A stretch of DNA of 64,000 nt. Source: Candidatus Sericytochromatia bacterium (GTDB taxonomy: Bacteria; Cyanobacteriota; Sericytochromatia; S15B-MN24; VGJW01). The notes under the pieces were generated by a model, which saw nothing but the letters and a program-made list of their open reading frames with translations, had not been told where the DNA came from and made no database searches. Where the stretch lies: the NCBI GenBank assembly GCA_035286125.1, contig JAYKIS010000082.1, forward strand, positions 1,253-65,252. Direction: 5' to 3'. Position 1 is the stretch's first letter; every line of letters begins with the position of its first letter. Position numbers and translations under genes: made by a program. Positions 1,105-58,860 of the stretch are shown piece after piece.

Positions 1105-2795
1105 CGCTGGCCCGGACCTTCCTCGCGCTGCGCGAGTCGGCCCACGCACGCCGCTTCGAGGCCGCGCTCAGGGACCCGGCTGCGGCACAGGCGCAACTGC
1201 TCGAGACGCTCTGTCGCGATCATGCCGGGACGGCCTTCGGCAAGGTCCATGGGTTCGCGGCCATACGGGACGCGGATGCGTGGCGCCGGGCCGTGCCCCT
1301 CGGGGACTTCGAGACGCATCGGCCTTGGGTGGATCGGCTGCTCGCGGGCGAGCAGGGCGTGCTGACCCGGCAGGCCCCCGACAGCTTCTGCATCACCAGC
1401 GGCTCGACCGGCGCCCCCAAGCTCATTCCCGTGTCCCATGAATGGCGCGAGGCCTACGCTGCCCAGACCAGGCTCTGGATTCGCGGGGCGATGCGGGACC
1501 ATCCGGGGCTCTTTGCCGGACGTATACTGACGCTCGTCAGTCCTGCGGTCGAGGGCCTGACCGAGCGGGGCATGCCCTACGGATCCATGTCTGGCATGTC
1601 CGCCCGTCGGGCGCCGTGGCTGGCTCGCCGGCAGTACGCGCTGCCCTACGCCGTAGCACTGATCCGTGACCACGAGGCCCGGTACTTCTTCGTGGCACGG
1701 GTGGCCATGGCACAGTCCGTGACGGCCCTGCTGTCGCCCAATCCCAGCACCCTGCATCGCCTTGCCGGCGTCATCGCGAACCGGGCGGACGACCTGCTTC
1801 GTGCCCTGCACGAGGGTGTCGCCGGTGCCCCACTGCCCGAGGTCCTGCAACTGGAGGGGCCAGTCAACCTGCAGGAGCGCCTGGCCCCGCATCTGGTGGC
1901 CCGGCCCGACCTGGCCCGTCGTCTCACGGCGGCTGCCTCCCGAGAGGGGCGTCTGACCCCGGCCATGCTCTGGCCCGACCTGGCGTTATTGGGCTGCTGG
2001 CTCGGGGGCAGCGCCGGAGTCCAGGCAAGGGGCCTGCGCGAGCTCTACGGGCGCGAGGTGCCGATGCGGGATCTGGGCCTGCTGGCTTCCGAGGGTCGGA
2101 TGAGCCTGCCGCTCGAGGACGATTCCGCGGCGGGTGTCCTGAACGTGCACGCCGTCCACTACGAGTTCCTGCCCGAGGATATCTCGTCCCCCGGGCCCGA
2201 TGCGCCTACCCTGCTGGCCCATCAGCTGCAGGAGGGAGGGCGCTACCGCGTTGTCATCACGCCCGGTCAGGGCCTGTACCGCTACGACATGAACGACATC
2301 GTCGAGGTGCGGGGCTTCGTCGGCCGCACGCCGCGCATCGCCTTCCTGCGCAAGGGGCGTGACATGCTCTCGATGACGGGCGAGAAGCTGCACCTCAACC
2401 AGGTGCAGGAGGCCCTGCTCGAGGCGGTTGCGGCAGAAGGCGTCGCGTTCTGGCAATATCGCCTCGTCGCCAACGTCGACCGCATGGCCTATGACCTGCT
2501 TGTCGAACCCTCTGGCCTGCCCTGGTCGCCCGAGGTGGCCGCGCGCGTCGCGGCCGGTCTGGATGTCGGCCTTTCGGCAAGGAACATCGAATACGCATCG
2601 AAGCGCCACTCCGGACGCCTGGGCCCCCCCCGGCCGGTGCTGATGCGCGCTGGCTGGGCCGAGGCCGTGAGTCGGGCTGCCTTTGCCGCCGGTCGCCGGG
2701 AGGCCCAGTTCAAGTGGAATCCTTTGTCGGACGCCTGGGATGACCTCAGCCGCGCCCACGTCGATCCTGCCGTGGTCCCGGAAGCCGGAGCGTGA
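1101..2795 (+). CDS. GH3 auxin-responsive family adenylate-forming amido synthetase
   Basis: TSGSTGAPKLIP P-loop, ASEG, GLYRYDMNDIVEV and GEKL motifs. GTGA overlap with the upstream stop. Confidence 0.9.
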   Translation: MTLARTFLALRESAHARRFEAALRDPAAAQAQLLETLCRDHAGTAFGKVHGFAAIRDADAWRRAVPLGDFETHRPWVDRLLAGEQGVLTRQAPDSFCITSGSTGAPKLIPVSHEWREAYAAQTRLWIRGAMRDHPGLFAGRILTLVSPAVEGLTERGMPYGSMSGMSARRAPWLARRQYALPYAVALIRDHEARYFFVARVAMAQSVTALLSPNPSTLHRLAGVIANRADDLLRALHEGVAGAPLPEVLQLEGPVNLQERLAPHLVARPDLARRLTAAASREGRLTPAMLWPDLALLGCWLGGSAGVQARGLRELYGREVPMRDLGLLASEGRMSLPLEDDSAAGVLNVHAVHYEFLPEDISSPGPDAPTLLAHQLQEGGRYRVVITPGQGLYRYDMNDIVEVRGFVGRTPRIAFLRKGRDMLSMTGEKLHLNQVQEALLEAVAAEGVAFWQYRLVANVDRMAYDLLVEPSGLPWSPEVAARVAAGLDVGLSARNIEYASKRHSGRLGPPRPVLMRAGWAEAVSRAAFAAGRREAQFKWNPLSDAWDDLSRAHVDPAVVPEAGA

Positions 2796-2799
2796 CCGT

Positions 2800-3000
2800 G
2801 TCGTGCGTGTCTTGGCGCTCGCCGCGTGACTGTGGCGTCGCCCGCCTGTCGAACCCGATGCCCCTGCTTTCGTGGCTGCTGCCCTGATGCTTGTCGGCCT
2901 GCATCTGCGCATCTGGGCCGGTCCTTCACGTGGAACGTTGAGGTCCAATGCGGGCAGACCGGCATCGAGGCCGGGCCGTATCGAGTCATACGAAGGCGTG
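2800..3000 (+). pseudogene. Decayed isoprenylcysteine carboxyl methyltransferase (ICMT/Ste14) family remnant
   Basis: Frame 1 reads ALMLVGLHLRIWA, and frame 3 continues HLGRSFTWNVEVQCGQTGIEAGPYRVIR, which resembles the ICMT core. There is an in-frame TGA at about 2827 and a frameshift at about 2910-2919, and the HPxY motif is lost. Confidence 0.6.
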
Positions 3001-3129
3001 ATATCGGTCATGCCGCCTGCGTGGAACGGATCGGGGCCAGGTGGCCCCGGCTTCGGGGGCGCTGACAGGCTCGGCCCGACACAGGTCCCGCCCCATGCCA
3101 TCGGGCAAGCGAAGATTGGCTGAACCTGC

Positions 3130-3156
3130 TGAAACCGAATGTCTGCTCGACACGTT
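3130..3156 (+). promoter_or_regulatory. ECF-sigma-type promoter (TGAAAC-N17-CGTT), probably autoregulatory
   Basis: TGAAAC at 3130-3135, a 17-nt spacer and CGTT at 3153-3156, lying 44 nt upstream of the Spy/ECF/anti-sigma operon. Confidence 0.6.
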
Positions 3157-3200
3157 TTTCATGTCAGGGAACACTCTACTGCTTGCTGAGAGGAGGCGGC

Positions 3201-3740
3201 ATGGACGTCTGGAAAGTTTGTGCAATCACGGTCCTGGGCTTCGCCATGGCGATGCCGGGCCTGCCCGCGGAGGCGCGACGGGAGGGACGGCTGCCTGCTG
3301 GCACACCTTCAGCGGGGGAGGCCGCTGCCGCAGGAGAACGGCAGGAGGGTGGGGCGCCGGGCCCCGGTCTTTTCCGCCAACTGGGTCTGTCGGAGGAGCA
3401 GCGATCGGCGTTGCGGGCCCTGCGCCAGCGTCATCAGCAGGCCCATCAGGCTCTGCGCCAGCAGTTGCGGGATCAGGAACGGGAGCTGTTCCGGGCGATG
3501 GTGGCGCCGGATGCGCGCCAGGCCGATGTCGAGGCACGACAGCAGGCCGTATCGGAACTGCGGGGACGCCTCGCACGCGCCCGGATTGCCGCGTTTTTCG
3601 AGGCCCGCGCCTTGTTGACTGCGGAACAACTGCAACGCCTCCCCGATGCTGCGGCGGACCGCGGACAGGGGGGGCGTGGACGTCGGCCGGGGGGAAGAAT
3701 GGGACGCGACCGATTGGAGCGTGGGGAGGCAAGGCCCTGA
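3201..3740 (+). CDS. Spy/CpxP family periplasmic chaperone (LTXXQ motifs)
   Basis: AGGAGG SD, signal peptide, LGLSEEQ and LLTAEQ motifs, helical Arg/Gln-rich sequence. Confidence 0.85.
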   Translation: MDVWKVCAITVLGFAMAMPGLPAEARREGRLPAGTPSAGEAAAAGERQEGGAPGPGLFRQLGLSEEQRSALRALRQRHQQAHQALRQQLRDQERELFRAMVAPDARQADVEARQQAVSELRGRLARARIAAFFEARALLTAEQLQRLPDAAADRGQGGRGRRPGGRMGRDRLERGEARP

Positions 3741-4225
3741 CCCGGTCAGCCGACGCTGATCTCCACCGGCTTTGGGACCGGGTGTGCCGGACACTGCGAC
3801 ATCTGTGTGGTGATGCCGACGTCGCACGGGACCTGACGCAGGAGGTCTTCCTGCGTGCGGCTCGGGCCAAGGTCCGGGGCGATGAGCCGTGGGCCCTGGC
3901 GTGGCTGCTGCGGGTGGCCCGCAACCTGCTGGTGGACCGCGCACGCCGGGGTGTGCATGCCGAAGTTCCCCTGAGTTCGGTGCCCGCTACGAGCGTCGCG
4001 GTCGACGACCCGGCCTACGCCCGTATCGACCTCGAGACCGGCTTTGCCCAGCAAGTAGCCGGTTTGCCTGCGGCCTGGCGCGAGGCCTTGATGCTGCGCC
4101 ACACGCATGACCTGCCCGTCGAGGATGTCGCCCGAATCATGGATGTGCCCACAGGGACGGTGAAGACCTGGCTCCACCGGGCCCGTGCGAAGCTGGCCGG
4201 ATGGGGCCAGGAGGAGGACGCCTGA
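3737..4225 (+). CDS. ECF RNA polymerase sigma factor (probable CTG start)
   Basis: Region 2 (ARDLTQEVFLRA, WLLRVARNLLVD) and region 4 (LPAAWREAL...GTVKTWLHRAR). GGAGG precedes CTG 3737, which overlaps the Spy stop. Alternative start is GTG 3782. Confidence 0.85.
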   Translation: MTRSADADLHRLWDRVCRTLRHLCGDADVARDLTQEVFLRAARAKVRGDEPWALAWLLRVARNLLVDRARRGVHAEVPLSSVPATSVAVDDPAYARIDLETGFAQQVAGLPAAWREALMLRHTHDLPVEDVARIMDVPTGTVKTWLHRARAKLAGWGQEEDA

Positions 4226-7837: not shown

Positions 7838-8695
7838 ATGTCAGAACGCATCGTCGTCCTCGGCGCCGGCCAGATGGGCTCCGGCATCGCTCAGGTCTTT
7901 GCCCAGGCGGGTTATCCCACCACGGTCCAGGACGTGGCCGAGCCCGCGCTTGTCCGCAGCCGCAAGCTCATCACCAGCCTGCTCGACAAGGCCGTCGACA
8001 AGGGCAAGATGACGCCCGAGGCCCGCGAGGCCACGCTGGCCAACCTGACTTGGGCGACCTCCCTCGATGCCGTCAAGGATGCGGCGTTGGTCGTCGAGGC
8101 CGTCATCGAGAACCTAGAGGCCAAGCAGGCCCTGTGGCAGCAGGTGTCTGCCCTCGCTCCGGCGGATGCCGTGCTGGCCAGCAACACGAGCAGCCTGCCC
8201 ATCACGCAGTTGGGCGCGTCGGTCGCCCATCCCGAGCGCTTCATCGGGATGCACTTCATGAACCCCGTGCCGGTGATGCAGCTGGTCGAGGTCATCAAGG
8301 GCTTCCTGACAACGGATGATGTCCACCACAAGGTTCTCGCCTGGGCGCGTGCCGTGGGCAAGACCCCCGTCACCGTCGAGGATGCCCCAGGCTTCATCGC
8401 CAATCGCATCCTGATGCCGATGATCAACGAGGCGGTGTTCTGCCTGGCCGAGGGCATCAGCACGCGCGAGGACATAGACACCGTGATGAAGTTGGGGATG
8501 AATCACCCCATGGGGCCGCTGACGCTGGCGGACTTCATCGGTCTGGATACGTGCCTGGCCATCATGGAGGTCCTGCACCGGGACCTTGGCGACGACAAGT
8601 ATCGACCCGCGCCGCTGCTGCGCAAGATGGTGCAGGCCGGCCTGTACGGCCGCAAGAGCGGCCGGGGCTTCTACGACTATCGGGAGGCGAAGTGA
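7838..8695 (+). CDS. hbd: 3-hydroxybutyryl-CoA dehydrogenase
   Basis: [26 protein letters not shown] and GRKSGRGFY motifs. Confidence 0.93.
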
Positions 8696-9867
8696 TGGAT
8701 GTCCATCTGACCGAGGCCCAGCAGCAGGTCCAGGAGGCCGTCAAGGCGTTCTGTGCGCGGCATGTCGACCCCTTCGTGTCCCAGTGGGACAAGGACGAGC
8801 ACTTCCCGCTCGATGTGTTCCGCAAGATGGGCGAGGAGGGGTACCTGGGCATCCCCATTCCCGAAGCCTACGGCGGCGCCGGGGAGAGCTTCGACGTCTA
8901 CATCGCCGCCCTCGAGCAGTTGTCCCGTCACGATGCAGGCTTTGCCTGCGCTTACGCCGTGCACCTTTCGGCGCACGCCCTCAGCATCCTCGAGTTCGGG
9001 TCCGAGGCCCAGAAGCAGCAGTACCTGCCAGGCCTCGCGAATGGCAGCATCCTCGGGGCCTTCGCCCTTACGGAGCCCCACTGCGGATCGGATGCCTCGG
9101 CGCTGCGCTGCAAGGCCGAGAAGGATGGCGACCACTACGTCCTGACCGGCACCAAGCAATGGATCACCAATGCGAAGAGTGCGGGACTGTTCCTGTTGTT
9201 CGCGCGCACCGATGCCGCCTCGACAGGCGCCAAGGGCATCACGGCCTTCCTGATCGAGGCCGGGACCCCGGGCCTCAAGATCGATCGCAAGACGCACAAG
9301 ATGGGCATGCGGTCGTCCGAGACCTACGATCTGGTCCTGGACGGGTGCCGCGTGCACGAGTCGCAGGTTCTGGGTGTCGTGGGCGAGGGCTTCAAGATTG
9401 CCATGAAGACCCTGGACGGCGGCCGCATCGGCATCGCCGCGCAGGCCCTCGGCATTGCGCAAGCCTGCCTCGACGAGGCGCGTACCTTTGCCAACCAGCG
9501 CGAGGCCTTTGGCCAGCCCATCGCTCGATTCCAGGCGATTCAGTGGAAGATTGCCGATATGGCGAAGAACATCTGGGCCTCGCGTGCGCTGACTTACCAG
9601 GCGGCCTCCTTGAAGGCGGCCGGCAAGCCCGTGGCAGACGCCGGCGCCAAGGCCAAGCTCTACGCTAGCCGCACGGCGCGTGAGGCGGCCAACGAGTCGC
9701 TGCAGATCCACGGGGGGTACGGATACACCGACGAGTTCCCCGTCGAACGGCACTACCGCGACGCCAAGGTCACCGAGATCTACGAGGGGACCAGCGAAAT
9801 CCAGAAGATCGTCATCTCGCGCGGGCTCGTCGGCACGCCCAAGGCCAAGGTTCCCGCGCGGGTCTGA
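8695..9867 (+). CDS. Acyl-CoA dehydrogenase (short/branched chain)
   Basis: FALTEPHCGSD, GTKQWITN, QIHGGYGY and IYEGTSEIQ motifs. TGATG coupling. Confidence 0.93.
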   Translation: MDVHLTEAQQQVQEAVKAFCARHVDPFVSQWDKDEHFPLDVFRKMGEEGYLGIPIPEAYGGAGESFDVYIAALEQLSRHDAGFACAYAVHLSAHALSILEFGSEAQKQQYLPGLANGSILGAFALTEPHCGSDASALRCKAEKDGDHYVLTGTKQWITNAKSAGLFLLFARTDAASTGAKGITAFLIEAGTPGLKIDRKTHKMGMRSSETYDLVLDGCRVHESQVLGVVGEGFKIAMKTLDGGRIGIAAQALGIAQACLDEARTFANQREAFGQPIARFQAIQWKIADMAKNIWASRALTYQAASLKAAGKPVADAGAKAKLYASRTAREAANESLQIHGGYGYTDEFPVERHYRDAKVTEIYEGTSEIQKIVISRGLVGTPKAKVPARV

Positions 9868-9897
9868 TGTTCTGGCCGGGCCGAGGCCCTTGCGGCG

Positions 9898-12800
9898 TCA
9901 ACCCGTGAGCAGCCTCGCCCGGTCGCGCAAACGCTCGAGGTCCATCGCCGCCATCGCGCGAGCGGAATCCATCAGGATCCGCTGCCGTGTCTGGATCACC
10001 GCCTCGCTTGCCACGTCCGCGTCAACGAGGTCGGATTGGGATCTTTGGGCCATGGTCCCCTGGATGCCCAAGGCCGCTGTCTGGTGCCCGACGCGATTCA
10101 TATAGGCGCCAAGGCGGTTCAGGCGTCGGGTCAAGGCCTCGATGGCCCCGTCACAGACGCCGATGGCCTCGGAAGCTTCTGTGGCGTCCATCAGGCAGAT
10201 GGCCCCGAGTCCGAGTGTCTCGACGGTGACTGCCTCCAGTTGCCACGTCTGGGTGTCGACGGCACGGGCCCCGCCCAGCAGGTCCACCCGCAGCGCACCG
10301 GTGGTGCTGGGATCCAGTCGGTCGTACGTGATGCGAACGTTGTTGCCGTCCCCGGACAGGGCGTGGGCGCCCACCAACTCGATCTTGTATTCGCTGTAGA
10401 GCTGGACCCCTTTGTAAATGGTGCCGGGTACCGGAGGATGCAGGTACCAGCCGTCCCCGGCCAGGCTGCTGCTTCGTGGCACGGCAATGCTGTTGGCTGT
10501 CACGGTGATCGTGTCCTCGTCTACCAGCAGGCCGGTCGGAGAGACAGGAAAGCCCGTTTCGCAGCCGTCCGGGCTGCCTTGGGGGATCGTCAGCAGGAAG
10601 GTGTTGTCACCGGCGACGGCGTAGCTGATGCGGAACGTGGTGGAGCCGACGGATGCGTCCTTCTTCGGGTCAAGGACCTCCAGACGCGTATGGCCCGCGA
10701 GGGTTCGGAATCCGGTGCCGGAACCGCTCGTGTCTTCGGAGAGCGCTACCCCGTCCATGGTGACCTCGACCGAACTGCGGTTGCCATAGTCGAGCGCCTG
10801 AGCCGGGATGGTCAGGCTGGTGGGTGTCCAGTCGTCATTGGCCGTATCGTCGACCCACGCACGGATACTTGTGCCCGCGCCGGACATGGCGTTGGGCAGG
10901 ATAGATGGTGAGCTGATGTCGATGCGGCGTGTGTCCAAGGTGTCGAGGCTCCACCCGCTCGTCCGGGTGATGCCGTTCGTGATGACCTTGACTGCATCCG
11001 GGTCGGCTGCCCCAGCTCCGTTTGCGAGTCCTGCTCCGTCCGGCGAGGCGAGGCCCCAGTAGTCCGGTCGAACCCCCAGTTGCACCTCCAGTATGCCGTC
11101 GGTGTCCTGCGCCATCCCTGTGTCCGCGTAGTAGCGAACCCCCAGGGATTGCGAGAGTGTGCCCTGGGAGGTGCCAAGGAAGGTCAGTGTCCGGCCCGCA
11201 GCGTCGTAGATCAGGTCATTCAGGCCGCCGGCCGCGGCCGACACGGGGCGGACGGCGTTGCCGTTTCTCAGGCCGGCGATGGCTTGGGAGGCTGTCGCAT
11301 CATCCAGGCCGTAGGTCTCGGGAGTCTCGGCGAAGACCAGATCCACGGCTCCGTCGCCATCATCGTTCCGAGGGGTCATGTTGCCGCCGGCCGCCACGTT
11401 GTAGTCCGTGCGGTAGTCGACGCGGATACCTTGGGAGCCACTCGGGCGGGCGTTGCCGTGGATGCGGATGCTGTTGTTGTCGAAGAAGCTCCAGCCGTTG
11501 GTGCCAGTCGGGTCATAGGCGACCGTCTGGCCACCGGTGCTGACGATGACGGAGGCGTTGGTGGTGCTGCGCGCCGTGCTGTCCGAGATACCGCCGGGTA
11601 CGGAGCCCAGTTGGTACTGGACCGGTGCATAGGCCAGGTCCACTTGGACATAGGGCACGCCTGTGCCGGCATCCGTACCATTTCCCCCGGACGCTCCCGA
11701 GAAGGACAGCGTGTCATTGCTGTCCAACAGGCCGCTGCCGTGGAAAGTGATGGTCTTTGCCACGTAGTCGATGCTGTAGCCGTTCGTACCCGTGGCGTCA
11801 TACGGTATGTTCCGGGCGACACCTGTCCGGGTCGACGTGACGCCGACACTGACTGAGGGGCTGCCGTCCGCCAACTGGTACAGGTTGAAGCCCGACAGGC
11901 TGTAGGTCTGGGGGATGCCAGCGGTGTCGCCATCGGCATTGATTCGATTACCCGGACCAACGGACGGTGGAGAACCGGTAGAAAAGCTGTGCACCTGGAT
12001 GGTGGCGGCGGAGGTGGTGGTGTCCTGTACCAGCGCGATCCTGTCGCCCGTGGGCGAGAAGGTGAATTGTGCGTTGCCCGACGAGAAGGCCAGGACACGC
12101 GTCCATGCATCCGTGCCCTTTCGCGCGTAGAGGCCTCCATAAGTTCCGGTGGTGCCGTTGCTTCGATTGGACAACTGCCAGAGTTCCCCGCCAATCGTGA
12201 CGGTTGTCCGGGAGACGGCATCGAAGCTCGCACCGCCCGGCGGAGCCTGACCTGTCGAGCCTGCCGGATCGTAATACACCGTCTGGGTGCTGCCGTTGTC
12301 CAGGATGCGGGTGGCTCGGATCGTGTTGCCGTCGGAGGACCATCGCGGTGTGATGTGCTTGATGTCGACGGGGTCCGAGACCGTGAAGGTCTCGGGGCGA
12401 TAGGCCTCGGTATCGGCGACCCCGAGGCCGGTCGTGAATGGCGCGATTGTCCTGGAGTAGGCTTGTCCCCTCGGGCCGTAGTTGTCGGCGGTCGGGATAC
12501 CGGATGTCTCTCCCGAGTCGTCTCCGAGCAGGACCTTGCGGGTGTTGTATTCGGTGCTGGTGGCCGTCCCCTGGATGGCCTGCAGGGCCTGGCGCACCTG
12601 TTCCATCATCATCGACCGCTGATCGTCGGTCCAGATACCCTGCGCTGCGCTGACAGCGAGTGTGCGCAGGCGATGAACCTGCTCAAGGACCTGCCGGGTT
12701 CCCCCTTCCGCTGTCGCGGCCAGGTTCCAGGCATCCTGCAGGTTCTGAATGGCCCGATGGGTCCCGCGGATATGGGACTCGAAACGTGCGTTCCGGGCCA

Positions 12801-12924
12801 TGGCGCCCGTATGCGCGGCGGCGCGCAGATCACCCGGCTTCTCGCCGACACGCCGGAGGCTCTCGGCCCACGCCGCCTCCATGCGGCCGTAGACCGAGCG
12901 CAGCCCGCTCGAGCGGATCTCCAT
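9898..12924 (-). CDS. Giant flagellin-like protein (1008 aa) with a ~790-aa beta-rich central insert
   Basis: Flagellin_N-like (NLQDA..TAEG..HRLRTLAV..TEYNTRKVL) and Flagellin_C-like (LGAYMNR..DADVASE..RQRIL) termini. Confidence 0.88.
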   Translation of the reverse strand: MEIRSSGLRSVYGRMEAAWAESLRRVGEKPGDLRAAAHTGAMARNARFESHIRGTHRAIQNLQDAWNLAATAEGGTRQVLEQVHRLRTLAVSAAQGIWTDDQRSMMMEQVRQALQAIQGTATSTEYNTRKVLLGDDSGETSGIPTADNYGPRGQAYSRTIAPFTTGLGVADTEAYRPETFTVSDPVDIKHITPRWSSDGNTIRATRILDNGSTQTVYYDPAGSTGQAPPGGASFDAVSRTTVTIGGELWQLSNRSNGTTGTYGGLYARKGTDAWTRVLAFSSGNAQFTFSPTGDRIALVQDTTTSAATIQVHSFSTGSPPSVGPGNRINADGDTAGIPQTYSLSGFNLYQLADGSPSVSVGVTSTRTGVARNIPYDATGTNGYSIDYVAKTITFHGSGLLDSNDTLSFSGASGGNGTDAGTGVPYVQVDLAYAPVQYQLGSVPGGISDSTARSTTNASVIVSTGGQTVAYDPTGTNGWSFFDNNSIRIHGNARPSGSQGIRVDYRTDYNVAAGGNMTPRNDDGDGAVDLVFAETPETYGLDDATASQAIAGLRNGNAVRPVSAAAGGLNDLIYDAAGRTLTFLGTSQGTLSQSLGVRYYADTGMAQDTDGILEVQLGVRPDYWGLASPDGAGLANGAGAADPDAVKVITNGITRTSGWSLDTLDTRRIDISSPSILPNAMSGAGTSIRAWVDDTANDDWTPTSLTIPAQALDYGNRSSVEVTMDGVALSEDTSGSGTGFRTLAGHTRLEVLDPKKDASVGSTTFRISYAVAGDNTFLLTIPQGSPDGCETGFPVSPTGLLVDEDTITVTANSIAVPRSSSLAGDGWYLHPPVPGTIYKGVQLYSEYKIELVGAHALSGDGNNVRITYDRLDPSTTGALRVDLLGGARAVDTQTWQLEAVTVETLGLGAICLMDATEASEAIGVCDGAIEALTRRLNRLGAYMNRVGHQTAALGIQGTMAQRSQSDLVDADVASEAVIQTRQRILMDSARAMAAMDLERLRDRARLLTG

Positions 12925-12938
12925 CCTTGTTGATCCTG
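12922..12938 (-). promoter_or_regulatory. Putative CsrA binding sites in the flagellin leader
   Basis: The leader reads CAGGAUCAACAAGGAUG. ACAAGGAUG overlaps the start codon and matches the CsrA core ACARGGAUG. Confidence 0.5.
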
Positions 12939-12951
12939 AATTCCCACCTCA

Positions 12952-12978
12952 TTATCGACGATGTTGATATGGGGTTTA
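12952..12978 (-). promoter_or_regulatory. sigma28 (FliA/SigD) promoter TAAA-N15-GTCGATAA
   Basis: Minus strand: TAAA at 12978-12975, exactly 15 nt, then GTCGATAA at 12959-12952 (7/8 match to GCCGATAA). Lies 27 nt upstream of the flagellin ATG. Confidence 0.85.
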
Positions 12979-13123
12979 GGTATTACGTCCAGATGTTGAT
13001 CTCGAGGCCCGCTGGAGGTCAGTCGTGCTTGGGCCGAACCCCGGTCGATGGCGGCCGGAATGATGGCAAGGGCCCTGCCTTCGTGGTAGGACCATGGGAT
13101 ACCGTCATCACCCGGAGCTACCC

Positions 13124-14770
13124 TTGACCACGTCCTCCCCGACCCTCGCCGCCGAGGTCGCCCGTCGCAAGACCTTTGCGATTATTTCTCACCCGGACGC
13201 CGGCAAGACGACACTTACGGAAAAGCTGCTCCTGTACGGGGGCGTCATCCAGTTGGCCGGGGCCGTCAAGGCCAAGCGGGGCCGCGCTTCGGCCGTCAGC
13301 GACTGGATGGAGATGGAGCGGGAGCGCGGCATTTCCATCACGACGTCGGTCCTGCAGTTCCCCTATCGGGGGCTGCAGATGAACCTGCTCGACACGCCTG
13401 GCCACGCCGACTTCTCCGAGGACACCTACCGTACGCTCCATGCGGCTGACGGCGCGGTCATGCTGCTCGACGCCGCCAAGGGCGTCGAGGCCCAGACCAA
13501 GAAGCTTTTCCATGTCTGCCGGCAGCGTCGGATGCCGACCTTCACATTCGTCAACAAGATGGACCGGCCCGGCCGTGATCCGTTCGATCTCATCGGAGAG
13601 GTCGAGAGCCTTCTCGGTATCGGTGTTTTCCCCGTTACTTGGCCGGTCTTTCGGCACGGCATCTTCCGGGGCGTCGTCCATCGCCTGAACCGTCAGGTTC
13701 ATCTCTTCTCGGAGACCCATGCCGGATCGAGTGCGGCCGTCGGGTCCGAGGTGCCACCCGTGGCCCTGGCCGGCTTCGATGACCCGCTGCTGACCCGGGA
13801 GCTGGGCGAGGAAGGTCACCAGAGGCTGCTCGAAGAGCTCGAGATCCTGGACATGGCGGGCGACGGTTTCGACCTTGCGCGCTTCGCCGTCGGGGATGTG
13901 TCGCCGATGTTCTTCGGCAGCGCGATCAACAACTTCGGGCTCGAGGCGTTCCTCGAGAGTTTCTGCGAACTCATGCCTCCTCCCGCACCTCGCGTTTCGA
14001 GCTCGGGACCCATCGCGGCCGATGACGAACATTTCAGTGCCTTTGTGTTCAAGATTCAGGCCAACATGGACAAGACGCACCGCAATCGCGTGGCATTCAT
14101 CCGCATCTGCTCCGGGCGGTTCGAGCGCGGCATGAAGACCGTGCATGTCCGCACGGGACGCGAGATGCGGCTTTCCAACCCGACGCAGTTCATGGCCCAG
14201 GAACGCAGCCTGGTCGAGGAAGCCTTCGCAGGCGACGTCCTCGGCATCCACGACCCCGGCGTCTTCGAGATTGGCGATACCCTGACGGACGGGATGCTGC
14301 TGACATTCGACGAGATCCCGAGCTTTGCCCCCGAGCTGTTCAGCCGTCTGGAAATGGTCGATCCGCTCAAGCGCAAGCAGCTTTCGAAGGGCATCGAGCA
14401 GTTGGCCCAGGAAGGGACCATCCAGCTCTACCGTCCCCCGTCCGGGCGAGGCGGCGACATCGTCCTCGGGGCGGTGGGCCAACTGCAGTTGGAGGTCGTC
14501 AGGTACCGCCTCAAGAGCGAGTACGACGTCGAGGTTCGCCTGTTGCCCGTGAACTGCTCGTTTGCGCGCTGGGTTGTCCGCAAGGATGGTGGCGACGTGG
14601 ACCCTGACCGACTTGCGCAGGCCCGAATCGCGACCGTGGTGGTCGATGTCCGCGACAGGCCAGTCTTCCTGTTCCAGGGGGAATGGCAACTCAATATGGC
14701 CATGCGTGACCTGCCGGACTACGAGTACCGGGAGACGGCGCGGGGCGTCGTGGTCCGTTCGCGGGGCTGA
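13124..14770 (+). CDS. prfC: Peptide chain release factor 3
   Basis: RRKTFAIISHPDAGKTTLTEKLL, DTPGHADFSEDTYR, NKMD and FVFKIQANMD motifs. TTG start after GGAG. Confidence 0.96.
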   Translation: MTTSSPTLAAEVARRKTFAIISHPDAGKTTLTEKLLLYGGVIQLAGAVKAKRGRASAVSDWMEMERERGISITTSVLQFPYRGLQMNLLDTPGHADFSEDTYRTLHAADGAVMLLDAAKGVEAQTKKLFHVCRQRRMPTFTFVNKMDRPGRDPFDLIGEVESLLGIGVFPVTWPVFRHGIFRGVVHRLNRQVHLFSETHAGSSAAVGSEVPPVALAGFDDPLLTRELGEEGHQRLLEELEILDMAGDGFDLARFAVGDVSPMFFGSAINNFGLEAFLESFCELMPPPAPRVSSSGPIAADDEHFSAFVFKIQANMDKTHRNRVAFIRICSGRFERGMKTVHVRTGREMRLSNPTQFMAQERSLVEEAFAGDVLGIHDPGVFEIGDTLTDGMLLTFDEIPSFAPELFSRLEMVDPLKRKQLSKGIEQLAQEGTIQLYRPPSGRGGDIVLGAVGQLQLEVVRYRLKSEYDVEVRLLPVNCSFARWVVRKDGGDVDPDRLAQARIATVVVDVRDRPVFLFQGEWQLNMAMRDLPDYEYRETARGVVVRSRG

Positions 14771-14782
14771 CGCCGCGCACGG

Positions 14783-15256
14783 TCAGTCAGCCGGGTGTGC
14801 ACCCGGATGCATGGTCCTCGCGCGAAATGAGCCGATAGGCCACGGGGTGCCCGAGTCTGCGTCGCAGGGCACGACGTGGAGCACGTCGTCCGTCACCCAG
14901 TAGATCGCGTGCTGGAGGTAGCGCCTGCCCATCTCCCGGCCCTCTTCGAGCGACATCGGGACCAGCCACGAGGGCTCCGCATGGCTGCCGTCGGGGGCGC
15001 GCCCGACAATCGGGCGATGTTCCAGCCCTCGTATCCGGAGCTCGCGGTCCATCCTGGCCATGGCGCGCCTGTTCCGCGCCCCTGACCAATGCTGTCCGGT
15101 CGTGGCCCACGCCGTCACGATGACGAAGGATGCAGGCCACGGGGGCAAGGCTCCAGGCCCGTCGAAGACCGTGGCCCCGTAGGCTTCCGGGAAGGGTGCA
15201 GGTGTCCCGGAAGGGGCCGATGCCGGATTACCGCCGGAGCTGGACGGGTTCCGCAA
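14783..15256 (-). CDS. DUF3293 domain protein (start uncertain)
   Basis: FVIVTAW..N....EPSW....GRRYLQHAIYW pattern. TTG 15256 chosen as start. Confidence 0.65.
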   Translation of the reverse strand: MRNPSSSGGNPASAPSGTPAPFPEAYGATVFDGPGALPPWPASFVIVTAWATTGQHWSGARNRRAMARMDRELRIRGLEHRPIVGRAPDGSHAEPSWLVPMSLEEGREMGRRYLQHAIYWVTDDVLHVVPCDADSGTPWPIGSFRARTMHPGAHPAD

Positions 15257-16013
15257 GGTCCAGCACCGTTCCTGCCGTGACGCGGAAAGGCTCCGCCAGT
15301 TTGCCCTGCCCGAGCAGGCGGTGGCTGGCGACCACGCGGAATCGGCCTGCGGGCAGGTTGTCAATACGGAAGGCTCCCGAGGCGTCCGTCGCCGTCAGGT
15401 ATTCGGAGCCGGGAATCCAGACGGTGACGCCGGACGTGGCCTCGCCAGACGCCGTCAGGATGTTGCCCGCAACGCTGGCGGTAGCACCCAGCGTCAGCGA
15501 GGTCGTGGCGACCTGTCCTGCGGTGGCCAGGGGGATCTCGAGTTTCCACGCCTTGGTACCTTCGTCCCGGACAGCCTCGACGTTGTAGGACCCGGTGGCC
15601 GGCATCGAGAACGCGAAACGGCCGTTAGCATCCGTCAACGTGCGCCACGCCGTCTGCAGCATCTGGGTGCGGCGGGCGACCTGGGCTCCGGACCAGCTCT
15701 CCCCGAAGGTCGCCGCCAGAGCCGACGTGTTGTTCAGGGCGGAGGTGTTGTTGAGCGCCGAGGTATTGTTCAATGCCGACGTATTGTTCAGCGGCGACGA
15801 GCCATCGAGCATGACCGTCACGGGCAAGCTGGCGGCCGGGCGACCGTCCGGCCCCATCAGGCTGCCCTCGAGCTTCACCGGGGCGGTCGCCACTACGGCG
15901 CCGGTAGCCACGGCACCCGAAGGAGTCTGGGCCGGACACCCGCCAAGGCAGGCAAGCAGGACAACCAAGGTACCAGTACGCCACGGGGTGCGGAGGTTGA
16001 AAGCGTGGCTCAT
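15228..16013 (-). CDS. Lipoprotein with carboxypeptidase-regulatory-like (beta-sandwich) domains and LNNTSA repeats
   Basis: LLACLGG-C lipobox. TDANGRFAF and TDASGAFRIDNLPAG motifs. Confidence 0.78.
   Translation of the reverse strand: MSHAFNLRTPWRTGTLVVLLACLGGCPAQTPSGAVATGAVVATAPVKLEGSLMGPDGRPAASLPVTVMLDGSSPLNNTSALNNTSALNNTSALNNTSALAATFGESWSGAQVARRTQMLQTAWRTLTDANGRFAFSMPATGSYNVEAVRDEGTKAWKLEIPLATAGQVATTSLTLGATASVAGNILTASGEATSGVTVWIPGSEYLTATDASGAFRIDNLPAGRFRVVASHRLLGQGKLAEPFRVTAGTVLDLAEPVQLRR
15717..15791 (-). repeat. Four 18-bp coding tandem repeats (LNNTSA)4
   Basis: Identical peptide units encoded with different synonymous codons (ctg/ttg/ctc, aat/aac, acg/acc, tcg/tcc). Confidence 0.9.
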
Positions 16014-55527: not shown

Positions 55528-58500
55528 TCAGGTCAGTTGGAAGTGCCATGTCAGGTTGTGGTTGCTGTCGACCTCGACCAGGTGATTGGCGCCGGCGTGA
55601 TGCACCATCGTCCTGCCCGAGTCGAGGCGCCAGGCCAAGACCGGGGTCAGCATCTGCATCTGGAATCTTCCCTTGCGGCCGTAGCAGGCAGGCGCACCGC
55701 CATACTGCCAGACGAGCTTGCCTGCGGGGTCCAGTTCGAGCACCCGGTGGTTCTGGGTGTCGGCGATCAAGGTGTGCCCGTTGGCAAGCCGTGTGGCGTG
55801 CTCCGGATGGAACAACTGGCCATGGGCGTTGCCCGCGTTCCCCGGTTGCCCGAAGGCCCACACCGTCCGTCCCTGAGCGTCGAACTCATAGATGGCGTGC
55901 CCCCCCCAGTCCGTGACGAGCACGTTCCCATTGGGCAGCCGCGTCGCGTGACTGGGTGCCGCAAGATTATCCTTGCGCCACACCACGTCCTGGCTGACCG
56001 TGACCTCGAGAACGCGTCTGTTGCCCATGTCCGCCACGAGGAAGGTCCCGTGGCTCGTACGCTCGACGCTGGCCGGTTCGTCGAGCTGCTTGGGCGCGGC
56101 ACCCCGCTCCCCCATCTTGCCGAACTGCCAGACGATGGCATTGTCCCTGATCTCGATGATCCGATGATGACCCGTGTCGGCGACAAGGGTGCCGCCCTGG
56201 GGGGTCCGCCACGCGTATCGGGCCTGGGCCAGCCGCTGCCTTTCGCCACCGGACAGCCCGGTGTATTGCCAACTCACCTGCAGCTTGCGGTTGACCTCGA
56301 GCAATCTGTGGCGCGAGCGATCCGCAAAGAGAAAGGTCTCGGGCAAGTTGGGGGGCAGGGCGCTGGCCTGGGTTTCGGGGGCGGGAGCCTCACCGGCCTG
56401 GACCTCGGGTACGGAGCCTTCCGGCTGCCCGACTTCGCCGGGGGCGGATGGAGCACCCAGGTTCACTTCCCTTGCCGGACGGCCCTCGGCATCGACACAC
56501 ACGGCACCGCCTCGGCCCGCAATCCACGTCCGGCCCTGACCGTCTCGCTCTGCCGCATAGGGGTCGCGGGCCGCCGCACCGCCCCGCGCAGGCGCGATCC
56601 GGTGCGCCCAGCGAATCTGTCTTCCGCCGTCCAGCTCGATGACGCGCTGGTTGCCGGTGTCGCAGACGAGGAGGCCGCCATCGGGCAACAGGGCGATCCC
56701 CTGAGGATCGCTGAGTTGCCCGGCACCGGTGCCCTGGCCGCCACCAAGTCGGCTCGAGGCATTGCCATACTGCCACAGCACCTCGCCAGCCGCATCGACC
56801 CCGAGGATGCGATGGTTGCCCGTGTCGAGGATGACCGTCAGGCCGTCTGCCCGACGCAAGGCTGCCCCGGGCTTGAAGAGCAGGCCACGCGCCACCCCTG
56901 CCTTGCCTGTCTCGCCATAGCTCCAGACCACGGTGCCGGCGGGAGTCACCTCGAGGACCCGATGCTGGCCGGTGTCCACGATCAGCGTGTGGCCGCTGGC
57001 GAGCCGTGAGGCATGCCGGGGCTGCTTCAGGCGCTCGGCATCTCCGCCTCCGAAGCCCCATACTTCCGTCTGATTCCTGCGGTCGAACTCGATGACCCGG
57101 CCCAGATCAAGGTCCACGAGCAGCACGTTGCCACCCGGTACCCGACGTACCATTGCGGGCATCGGCATCCGCTGGGACCACGTCTCGCTGCCATCCGGGG
57201 CGAGTCCGACGGCCCGGCGGCGCGGAGGATCGGCCAGCAGCACCTCGGAATCGTCCTGACCCACCCAGGCGTCGACGGAGTGGACCTCGCTGGCTTCGTC
57301 GACGCCCTCCGGGTCCCGGTCATCCGGCTGGCTTCCGGCCCACGTCGCAAGGGGGGGCGTCGGAACGTCTGCTTGCGGTTCTGGCGCATCCGGTTCGGCA
57401 GCCCTGGCAGGCGCCGGGTCAGGAACGGGAGCGGCAGGTTGCCCTGACCGCAGGGCGGCTGCCTGCTCGAGCAGTTGAGGATAGCGACCCGTCAGAAAGC
57501 GCGCGAGTTGTTCTTCCCCGATGGCGACAGCCACGGGCTCTGCGCCGCCTGCCAACTGTGCGGCCAGTTGCAGGCCCGTCGGGTCCCGCGGATCGAGCAT
57601 GGCCACCACAAGTCGGCCGTCCTCGCGGAACAGCGGCACCATGCCCAGCGATCGCACCATCCGCTCGGGGAGCTGGGCCACGACCAGCGGGTCGACCCGG
57701 CTGTCTTCCAGGGGGCCGGCGTGGGGGGCATTGTCCTTCAGGCGGGCCAGCTCGGCACGGGTGACGACGCCCATCCCGATAAGCACGTCCGTCAGGCTGG
57801 GCGTCACGGGCAGCCACTCGCGCACGGGCGGGTGCGCGAGGGTCAGCGGCATCATGTCGAGCGGTGCGTCTTTCTCCAGCTTGCGCCGCTGCAAATCAAT
57901 CGTCAGCAATCGATGGCGACCAGCCTGTGTGCCTTCCTGCACCACGACGCTCAGGCGGTGCCCGTCCGGCGAGATGCGGAATGGCTCGACAGGGGCGGTT
58001 GAAGCGCGGTGGCCGGGCAGATTGAGCAGGTGCCGGACGCGCAGGTCTGCGGTCGAGACCGTCAGCAGGCCCAGTTCGTCCCCCGTGCGATAGAACAGCA
58101 CGTAGAGCAACTGGCCGTCGGGACTCAGGCCGAGGGGGCCGAGCGGCCCTGTAGGGAAGTTCTGGAAGCGTGGCTTGCCCGTCGTCAGGTCGATGACGCC
58201 CAGGCGGGGCGTCTGGCCATCCGTGACCCACCCCTGGCGACCGAGCGCGGCAAGCCCGAGGGCCTTTCGGCCACCGGCCGGACGAATCTGGACAGCGGCC
58301 GCCTGGGTGCCGGAGGCTGCCGCGATGACGTGGACGATGCCCGTGCCGCGGTTTCCGGCGAGGATGAACTCTCCCCCGGGTGACGTGGCCAGATCGATGG
58401 GGCCGACGGGTTCGGGCTGGGGCGACTGGATCGGACTGGGCAGGGTCAGGACCGAAGGTGAGGTCGCACGCTGGGGCACTCCGGCGAGGGCAAGGAAGCC

Positions 58501-58860
58501 ACCCTGTGGCGTGGCGAACAGGCCCGGCCGGACGTTGGCAGGCGCCTGGACGACATCTTCGATGGTGAGGCCATCGAGGGAGAGCACGAGCACACGACCG
58601 TCGGTCCACCGCGGCCAGCCACCCGTATCCACGGGTTCGCCCGCCTTGACCGAGGCCATCACCGTGCCGCGCCTGGGGTCCTTGAAGGGCACTACCTGCG
58701 CGGCATCGTCCGGGACGACGGCCGGCGGCATGGGAATGGGTTTGGCGACGGTTTCCTGCTGGACGCGCCGTTGGGCCTCTGCCAGCTGGGAGGGCGTGAC
58801 AAGGCGGGATCGGACGAGCAGGTCGCCAATCAGGGCGTCGTCGGGGACAGGATTCGACAC
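55528..58860 (-). CDS. Multidomain protein: split PilB/GspE N-terminal (MshEN-like) domain, YVTN-like propeller and NHL-repeat propellers
   Basis: LIGDLLVRSRLVTPSQL (aa ~9-25), SLTDVLIGMGVVTRAEL (aa ~355), LPERMVRSLGMVPL..LVVAMLDP, and many LxxP..LIADTGNHRV NHL repeats. Confidence 0.8.
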   Translation of the reverse strand: MSNPVPDDALIGDLLVRSRLVTPSQLAEAQRRVQQETVAKPIPMPPAVVPDDAAQVVPFKDPRRGTVMASVKAGEPVDTGGWPRWTDGRVLVLSLDGLTIEDVVQAPANVRPGLFATPQGGFLALAGVPQRATSPSVLTLPSPIQSPQPEPVGPIDLATSPGGEFILAGNRGTGIVHVIAAASGTQAAAVQIRPAGGRKALGLAALGRQGWVTDGQTPRLGVIDLTTGKPRFQNFPTGPLGPLGLSPDGQLLYVLFYRTGDELGLLTVSTADLRVRHLLNLPGHRASTAPVEPFRISPDGHRLSVVVQEGTQAGRHRLLTIDLQRRKLEKDAPLDMMPLTLAHPPVREWLPVTPSLTDVLIGMGVVTRAELARLKDNAPHAGPLEDSRVDPLVVAQLPERMVRSLGMVPLFREDGRLVVAMLDPRDPTGLQLAAQLAGGAEPVAVAIGEEQLARFLTGRYPQLLEQAAALRSGQPAAPVPDPAPARAAEPDAPEPQADVPTPPLATWAGSQPDDRDPEGVDEASEVHSVDAWVGQDDSEVLLADPPRRRAVGLAPDGSETWSQRMPMPAMVRRVPGGNVLLVDLDLGRVIEFDRRNQTEVWGFGGGDAERLKQPRHASRLASGHTLIVDTGQHRVLEVTPAGTVVWSYGETGKAGVARGLLFKPGAALRRADGLTVILDTGNHRILGVDAAGEVLWQYGNASSRLGGGQGTGAGQLSDPQGIALLPDGGLLVCDTGNQRVIELDGGRQIRWAHRIAPARGGAAARDPYAAERDGQGRTWIAGRGGAVCVDAEGRPAREVNLGAPSAPGEVGQPEGSVPEVQAGEAPAPETQASALPPNLPETFLFADRSRHRLLEVNRKLQVSWQYTGLSGGERQRLAQARYAWRTPQGGTLVADTGHHRIIEIRDNAIVWQFGKMGERGAAPKQLDEPASVERTSHGTFLVADMGNRRVLEVTVSQDVVWRKDNLAAPSHATRLPNGNVLVTDWGGHAIYEFDAQGRTVWAFGQPGNAGNAHGQLFHPEHATRLANGHTLIADTQNHRVLELDPAGKLVWQYGGAPACYGRKGRFQMQMLTPVLAWRLDSGRTMVHHAGANHLVEVDSNHNLTWHFQLT

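Follow-up and report, generated by a model that had tools for sequence, protein, structure and literature searches.

A giant flagellin with a propeller-like module and six tandem repeats in a Sericytochromatia genome

The 64,000-nucleotide stretch of contig JAYKIS010000082.1 from a Candidatus Sericytochromatia bacterium (assembly GCA_035286125.1; the whole stretch is called the window, and positions and strands refer to it unless another contig is named) contains a single open frame at 9898..12924 on the minus strand, whose 1008-residue product belongs to the flagellin family and carries a very large beta-rich insert between its ends. We read this giant flagellin, with a probability of about 0.5, as a specialised extra filament subunit, which would be controlled by sigma-28, exported through the flagellum and used to display an acidic propeller-like module together with six repeats. 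This reading is built on the protein family and its predicted fold, on the repeats, on purifying selection, on the sequence and conservation of the promoter, and on the presence of export genes in the genome.

In this scheme the gene would be transcribed from a late flagellar promoter of the sigma-28 type, and its product would leave the cell in unfolded form by way of the flagellar type III apparatus; the single FliS of the genome would most likely be its chaperone. Outside the cell the protein is predicted to fold into a normal D0/D1 helical core, and it would be incorporated into the filament either with the five short flagellins of the genome or in a zone apart from them. Each subunit would expose an acidic, all-beta outer part of about 80 kDa (isoelectric point 4.45) that comprises a three-blade propeller-like module and six repeats of about 85 residues, so that the filament would be thickened and re-surfaced, for example for surface contact, for viscous media or for protection. 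The family would have originated in one order of Sericytochromatia, and the junction between D0 and D1 would have been rewritten in the genus of the source genome (genus g1) and then frozen by selection.

Flagellin core and outer region of the protein

The gene was originally predicted, from the DNA letters and their translations, to encode flagellin N- and C-terminal domains, and profile searches bear this out. Pfam Flagellin_N matches residues 36-134 over profile positions 38-136 of 139, with 41.5 bits against a gathering score of 26.6, and Flagellin_C matches residues 922-993 (32.7 bits against 23), which leaves about 787 residues between the two matches, in line with the large insert proposed. 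Amongst the NCBIfam models, the best matches are flagellin models that cover both ends, with up to 53.3 bits against a curated cut-off of 347; the flagellin and FlgL models all stay far under their curated cut-offs, which for the flagellin models, lineage-specific and full-length as they are, is expected with a giant and divergent protein. The AlphaFold2 (AF2) model of the whole protein, based on a 12-sequence alignment (mean predicted local distance difference test score, pLDDT, 73; predicted template modelling score 0.42), has long helices at residues 6-123 and again at 914-1007, with an all-beta region in between. In a rigid-body comparison with this model, all 50 matches listed are flagellin chains (Z 17.3-21.9, about 230 residues aligned, model residues about 33-1008). 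Since Pfam, NCBIfam, the AF2 model and the rigid-body matches agree, the product is a flagellin-family protein by sequence and predicted fold, with a predicted D0/D1 helical core. At 1008 residues and with flagellin ends it is a giant flagellin as defined by Thomson et al. (2018), that is, longer than 1000 residues. The cysteine, tryptophan and histidine residues pointed out in the original prediction are present (3 Cys, 13 Trp, 12 His). The segment HRLRTLAV, which had been singled out as altered, is present as well, but the change is mild in comparison with relatives of canonical core, which carry QRLRTLAV or QRLRELAV.

The middle of the protein, about 770 residues, consists of a propeller-blade-like module and, after it, six beta-rich repeats in tandem (Table 1). 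The two stretches that had been noticed earlier as TolB- or propeller-like, TPRWSSDG and FTFSPTGDRIALV, are both located in the module. The Pfam family PD40 stays below its cut-off of 20.9 at residues 192-202, with 15.6 bits (E 0.017). Residues 140-520 were also modelled on their own (pLDDT 71); in a comparison of that model with 48,161 solved chains, protein residues 187-329 (model residues 48-190) align to beta-propellers, including WD40 proteins, TolB, propeller lectins and GH43 enzymes. These alignments span 73-134 residues, with a best Z of 9.5 (107 residues aligned), a Z of at least 8 in nine chains and a Z of 7.9 over 79 residues for TolB. The model shows about three blades, at Z 7-9.5, a score range common for such comparisons, and Foldseek gave weak propeller matches for the same model (two hits at E <=1e-3, template modelling (TM) scores of about 0.15-0.2). 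On the strength of this model we call residues of about 187-329 propeller-blade-like and no more than that. No adhesin or lectin family was recognised in the array by sequence, and the structural matches to propeller lectins are no better than those to WD40 proteins or TolB, and the proposed adhesin- or lectin-like array is not supported; lectin, adhesin and predation readings were supported by no test made.

The repeats were revealed by profile self-alignment alone, whereas a BLASTP self-comparison of the protein showed none. Using hhalign on residues 140-900, off-diagonal matches were obtained with probabilities of 99.9% (E 3.8e-37 and 4.5e-37), 99.2%, 99.1%, 92% and 89%, which define six repeats (R1-R6) of 76-103 residues, typically about 85, where about five or six related repeats had been anticipated. 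They align with the matching repeats of four relatives, giving 30 repeats in total, and the repeat unit contains, in this order, x-V-x-L-x-x-x-P-x-x-Y-x-L, S-V-x-V-x-x-x-G-x-x-V, Y-D-P-T-G-T-N-G-W/F/Y, T-I/L-x-L/F-x-G and I/V-x-V-x-Y-x-T-D. A degenerate seventh copy, which would include FTFSPTGDRIALV, may occupy residues of about 262-335; the weaker self-match behind it (92%) covers about 253-332.

In the insert no Pfam family scores above its cut-off, and the repeat profile has no match at E <0.1 among PDB sequences; the best is the pilus subunit EbpB at E 0.12, from which no fold was assigned to the repeats. An ESM Atlas look-up with residues 330-700 gave no usable match. Matches of the whole model in BFVD were to virion and phage fibre proteins, long and rich in beta structure, at TM <=0.13, which we take as the generic likeness of strings of beta domains and not as a relation. 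The insert is acidic (isoelectric point 4.45), with 79 Asp and Glu against 46 Lys and Arg. Calcium-binding repeats were considered and dropped, the protein having a single motif of the N/DxDxDG type (NDDGDG, residue 520), unlike the metagenomic protein P0017 described below, which has several NADQDG motifs. Of the cysteines, Cys788 (10561-10563, minus strand) opens repeat 6 and Cys910 (10195-10197, minus strand) lies just before the C-terminal D1 helix. Both are kept in eight sequences that span the two sites (three of the g1 clade, P0010, P0011, P0012, P0014 and P0020) and are jointly absent in P0013. This co-occurrence fits a possible extracellular disulfide, an uncommon feature among flagellins.

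Table 1. Features of the giant flagellin gene and of the region upstream of it (window positions).
Feature	Residues	Position	Strand	Basis
Giant flagellin gene	1-1008	9898..12924	-	1008 codons and stop; translation of open frame; Pfam ends above cut-off; orthologues
N-terminal D0/D1 helices	1-135	12520..12924	-	Pfam Flagellin_N; AF2 helices 6-26, 31-94, 100-123
Rewritten ND0-ND1 junction, VGEKPGDLRAAAHTGAMARN	26-45	12790..12849	-	Alignment with short flagellins and g13 giants
Linker and propeller-blade-like beta module	136-335 (blades about 187-329)	11920..12519	-	PD40 below cut-off; model Z 7-9.5
Six tandem beta-rich repeats, R1-R6	336-876	10297..11919	-	hhalign self-alignment; 30-repeat alignment
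R1	336-421	11662-11919	-	
R2	422-524	11353-11661	-	
R3	525-609	11098-11352	-	
R4	610-698	10831-11097	-	
R5	699-774	10603-10830	-	
R6	775-876	10297-10602	-	
Return strands and C-terminal D1/D0 helices	877-1008	9901..10296	-	Pfam Flagellin_C 922-993; AF2 helix 914-1007; dN/dS 0.09-0.27
Short leader: AGGA Shine-Dalgarno, second GGA at ATG		12925..12951	-	Conserved in 4 of 5 g1 genes aligned
Sigma-28 (FliA)-type promoter, TAAA-N15-GTCGATAA		12952..12978	-	Ends 27 nt upstream of ATG; sequence evidence

Relatives of the giant flagellin and its rewritten junction

Full-length orthologues with 89% and 79% identity and no insertions or deletions occur in metagenome-assembled genomes of Candidatus Tanganyikabacteria and Candidatus Sericytochromatia, the first of them sharing the neighbouring genes prfC and acyl-CoA dehydrogenase. 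An exhaustive protein search with the insert alone returned 13 proteins at E <=1e-3. Twelve were scanned with Pfam (P0002, whose two flagellin domains were already in the precomputed Pfam listing, was left out): nine carry flagellin domains, two are short fragments without a domain and one is an unrelated CarboxypepD_reg protein (E 3.4e-4). With the repeat profile, eight proteins were found among 5.8 billion (longer lengths allowed), all of them fragments or members of the same flagellin family. Across 47 genomes of the class, Flagellin_N occurs in 41 and the insert in seven, namely in all four genomes of genus g1, the source included, and in all three of genus g13, which is in the same order but in a different family; the 25 further genera among these genomes gave no match to it. 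Giant-bearing genomes hold four to eight further Flagellin_N matches each, FlgL counted. Genome G025, from a sister species, has two copies of the giant gene. The match to the second copy (C63:1295-3777; L031, L032) is split over adjacent frames at 2731-3444 and 1295-2731, which might reflect a frameshift, a pseudogene or an assembly error.

Other large flagellins were seen alongside this family. In family f7 of the class there are Flagellin_N frames of 842 to 1803 residues (G039:C16:87124-87522, G042:C31, G041:C6 and G036:C22), which have no match to the insert of the g1 and g13 giants. The metagenomic protein P0017 is an N-terminally cut flagellin of 1837 residues with Flagellin_C near its end, in which 10 stretches match the insert; by eye it contains at least 15 copies of the repeat of the insert, all of which show YHTDY...NADQDG, and its last part is an odd tail rich in Arg. 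Its composition seems richer in Asn, Lys and Tyr than that of the Sericytochromatia members, and by sequence it may come from another lineage. Three metagenome runs, one from each of three other studies (freshwater, lake water), have contigs over 24 to 30 of 30 bins along the gene and its upstream spacer, mostly at 95-99% identity. Contigs of the freshwater metatranscriptome run X20 span three parts of the gene, a weak hint of its expression, as such cover is no proof of transcription and the uncovered parts carry no meaning.

The position of the conserved LSSGLRINxAxDDAAG stretch is where the giant departs from its relatives. It is occupied by VGEKPGDLRAAAHTGAMARN, with GEKPGDLRAAAHTGAM in place of the SGxRINxAxDDAAG motif, and the replacement seen in the original prediction is thus confirmed. 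By comparison with the filament structure of Salmonella, we take the stretch at this position to form the 'spoke' that links the tubes of D0 and D1. In genus g1 it reads VGE(K/T)PGDLRA(A/S)AHTGAM, in genus g13 LS(S/T)GLRIxxAxDDAAG; in other words, the canonical junction is intact in the g13 members that bear the same insert, as it is in all five short paralogues of the source genome. The g13 giants match Flagellin_N at E 1e-28 to 1e-35, and because they pair this canonical N domain with the same insert, the ancestor was an ordinary flagellin of the assembly type. In a tree of the core (251 columns) the giants of the two genera group in a single clade, separate from the short flagellins, with a support of 1.0.

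The ratio of nonsynonymous to synonymous substitution rates (dN/dS), estimated by the Nei-Gojobori method from three g1 orthologues, is 0.08-0.15 for the whole gene and lies within 0.03-0.27 in every region: 0.03-0.06 at the rewritten junction (residues 24-46), 0.14-0.19 in N-terminal D0 (ND0; 1-35), 0.06-0.11 in the repeats (336-876) and 0.05-0.18 in C-terminal D0 (CD0; 960-1008). As both ends are under strong purifying selection and the D0/D1 fold is predicted intact, the 'degenerate polymerisation ends' of the original prediction were an overstatement. The low profile scores (41.5 and 32.7 bits, where the short paralogues reach about 155 with Flagellin_N and 96 with Flagellin_C) would also suit a decaying or non-functional flagellin remnant; however, the 1008-codon frame is intact and of equal length in three species-level genomes, the promoter is conserved and the gene is covered in the three metagenome runs, and the dN/dS of the whole gene, above all, in effect excludes such a remnant. 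Judged from these sequences, the g1 core went through a burst of change and was then conserved, rather than decaying, and a junction that was rewritten and then fixed by selection suggests altered packing or an altered position in the filament.

A different account of the rewritten junction is that the giant became a flagellin-derived junction or adaptor protein for a second flagellar gene set, in the role of FlgL (HAP3). With FlgL it has in common the Flagellin_N/C superfamily and a junction motif that departs from that of flagellins, and a single flgL was found in the genome against two basal-body gene sets (described below). We consider this role very unlikely: the FlgL models match the N end only and score below the flagellin models, far under their cut-offs (TIGR02550 30.4 bits against 127.2, PRK06663 32.6 against 337), the core tree places the giant inside the flagellin clade, far from FlgL, the g13 relatives have a flagellin-type DDAAG motif, and a normal flgL of 302 codons adjoins flgK on contig C40.

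Several observations weigh against the giant being an extra filament subunit. The nearly universal junction motif is gone, with VGEKPGDLRAAAHTGAM in its place in all genus-g1 members; the C-terminal SRIRDxD motif reads SDLVDADVA in the g1 giant, both Arg being gone; the stem of the g1 giants within their clade has a length of 1.20 substitutions per site, where the other branches of giants have 0.10-0.57; the N-terminal 33 residues are modelled with a pLDDT <50; and in both genera the giant gene is distant from the other flagellar genes. From the lost motifs and the long g1 stem it follows that co-polymerisation with ordinary flagellins is not assured. The main alternative, though less likely, is that the giant is instead a non-polymerising cargo comparable to FlaC, which in g1 would have kept the export signal, the chaperone site and sigma-28 control and would act as a released or surface-held acidic beta-repeat protein. 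Such a cargo would accommodate the rewritten junction, the lost Arg of C-terminal D1, the long core stem and the separate locus, and the structural matches include the Sphingomonas 'cell-surface flagellins' 3k8w, 3k8v and 2zbi. However, strong purifying selection on the D0 helices and D1, together with a full predicted D0/D1, exceeds what export and chaperone binding would apparently need, an argument that is weak because FlaC too keeps D0/D1, and the g13 relatives with the same insert are fully canonical in the core. We also tentatively consider that in the freshwater genus g1 an assembly-type giant was converted, still driven by sigma-28 and exported through the flagellum, with its junction rewritten and frozen and a possible disulfide between repeat 6 and the core, and that its present role is that of a repeat protein released or kept at the cell surface, or else of a filament subunit restricted to a special zone. 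If true, this would make the converted g1 giant a natural intermediate on the way from a structural flagellin to an effector secreted by the flagellum.

Promoter, flagellar gene sets and neighbouring genes

The consensus used for the promoter is that of sigma-28, known from E. coli FliA and B. subtilis SigD. The site upstream of the giant gene agrees with it at 11 of 12 positions; among 3000 random 203-nt windows none reaches 11, four reach 10 and 88 reach 9. It is also the sole match to the strict pattern TAAA-N14-16-G[CT]CGATAA on both strands of the 2.82-Mb genome, for which about 0.2 sites would be expected by chance as estimated from base composition. The aligned positions score 10/12 in G026 and in copy 1 of G025 and 8/12 in G024, and no clear sigma-28 site was found upstream of copy 2 of G025; both genus-g13 genes examined are preceded by TAAA-N16-GTCGATAA (11/12). 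Versions that score 9/12 lie upstream of two short flagellins and flaG, with TAAA-N15-TCCGACAT at one short flagellin and TCAA-N16-GxCGAxGA at the second and at flaG. No sigma-70-type site was found in 9700-13200, and no Rfam family matched window positions 8000-16000. We infer that local sigma factors would use the sigma-28-type site, which would tie the giant gene to the late flagellar regulon. The original prediction had named a minor flagellin or a cargo of the flagellum's type III secretion system; an extra flagellin it is, and the promoter fits either role. In four of five aligned g1 genes the leader ...(A/C)AGGATCAACA(A/T)GGATG is kept, and fliW and csrA lie directly downstream of flgK-flgL (contig C40:4664-5231); the GGA motifs of the leader are possible CsrA sites, through which a FliW-CsrA partner switch might control the giant gene.

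The gene had been called an orphan, which is true of its locus: a Pfam scan of the 55 other open reading frames in the window found no flagellar family, as had been noted earlier. It is not true of the genome, which encodes full flagellar gene sets and five short flagellins besides the giant, four in tandem near flagellar gene set 1 on contig C15 and the fifth alone on C86. Because it is additional to several ordinary flagellins, the giant is very likely not the major flagellin. The machinery comprises FlhA (two copies), FliPQR, FlhB, FliF, rod genes, MotAB, FlgK/L/N, FliD/S/T, FlaG, FliW and CsrA, with flgK-flgL-fliW-csrA and flgN on C40 and flaG-fliD-fliS-fliT on C7. There are two basal-body and export gene sets, whose FlhA paralogues are 41% identical, the second set containing FliF, FlgC, FliP, FliR, FliN, FlhB and MotAB again; one set lies at C15:32-60 kb, the other at C53:18-29 kb, C41:21-24 kb, C75:12-13 and 59-60 kb and C95:32-33 kb. 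By gene content this Sericytochromatia genome may have a dual flagellar system.

Two gene sets raise the possibility of a separate thick filament, built from one of the sets or under particular conditions, that consists of the giant alone. The Bermanella giants are described (PMC6248924) as forming homopolymeric thick filaments, and the strongest sigma-28 site of the genome precedes the giant gene. Nevertheless, such a filament seems improbable: tblastn found a single FlgK, FlgL, FlgN, FliD and FliS (and a single FlgI) in the 87%-complete genome, four tandem canonical flagellins reside on the contig of gene set 1 with the fifth alone on C86, and nothing links the giant gene to either set. A specialised extra filament subunit remains our preferred reading.

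Some other genes were noted as observations in their own right. At 15231-16013 (minus strand), 2.3 kb from the giant gene, the window encodes a 261-residue CarboxypepD_reg protein whose N-terminal ...LLACLGGC resembles a lipobox; a 258-residue homologue (39% identity over 135 residues; L033:10347-11120, plus strand) is the divergent neighbour of the g13 giant gene, a linkage that may be due to chance because such paralogues are common in these genomes. The frame at 3041-4225 (plus strand) encodes a 394-residue protein with sigma-70 regions 2 and 4 in its C-terminal third and an N-terminal extension of about 240 residues without a Pfam match; elsewhere in the genome a second sigma factor is encoded beside FlgI/FlgA. 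The 1110-residue protein of 55531-58860 (minus strand) combines an MshEN domain with NHL repeats and beta-propeller repeats of the PQQ/BamB type.

Comparison with known flagellins

FlaC is small and is not known to bear outer domains, whereas the outer region of the present giant measures about 770 residues. Campylobacter FlaC is reported (PMC4863622, PMC5466977) to be a secreted, non-structural flagellin homologue, exported through the flagellum, with which the giant shares its status as an extra paralogue, its flagellin-like ends and a locus of its own.

Giant flagellins of more than 1000 residues have been described in Bermanella marisrubri and Oleibacter marinus (Thomson et al., 2018; PMC6248924), and the Bermanella protein builds filaments, as does the 792-residue chain of Geovibrio (PDB 9au6; PMC11532411). 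Our protein resembles the Bermanella and Oleibacter giants in its D0/D1 ends, in a very large insert that arose by internal duplication and in an insert sequence confined to flagellins. It is unlike them in that the insert is unrelated and without the DE/DX architecture, the repeat profile finding proteins of the Sericytochromatia type only, in that it is one of six flagellins where theirs is the only one, and in its rewritten core junction.

The top Foldseek match of the whole model is 9au6 of Geovibrio thiophilus (E 2.3e-14). Fields et al. (2024; PMC11532411) assign outer domains D2-D5 to this flagellin, and a multi-domain, beta-rich and negative outer region as well as several flagellins in the genome are common to both cases, while the number and kind of outer domains differ. 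A similarity of the outer domains is unsupported because only the core aligns in the rigid-body comparison (189 residues, Z 18.4). The AlphaFold survey of outer-domain diversity in the same paper includes a WD40 cluster (#55) and the four-domain Geovibrio flagellin, whose type of outer domains forms cluster #41. Like the members of cluster #55, the giant bears a propeller-type module on a flagellin; here, however, about three blades are predicted (Z 7-9.5) and six repeats of another kind follow.

Among the papers listed by a literature search, none treats flagella in Sericytochromatia by its title or abstract; PMC6340189 mentions flagella for Gastranaerophilales only, and the string 'flagell' is absent from the main text of the Tanganyikabacteria paper PMC8245535. 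Neither the size of the protein nor its having an insert is new, because giant flagellins and a variety of outer domains have been described. New are the outer-domain family, which has no catalogued relative and is built from a repeat that also occurs in an unplaced flagellin of more than 1837 residues (at least 15 copies by eye), and the host lineage, Sericytochromatia being the non-photosynthetic sister of cyanobacteria. New as well is a natural pair of genera in which the same giant flagellin has a canonical core (g13) or a rewritten but constrained one (g1). This contrast is the part most worth pursuing: the pair offers a comparison for the role of the nearly universal SGLRIN..DDAAG junction in filament assembly, and it bears on how a structural flagellin might become an exported non-structural protein.

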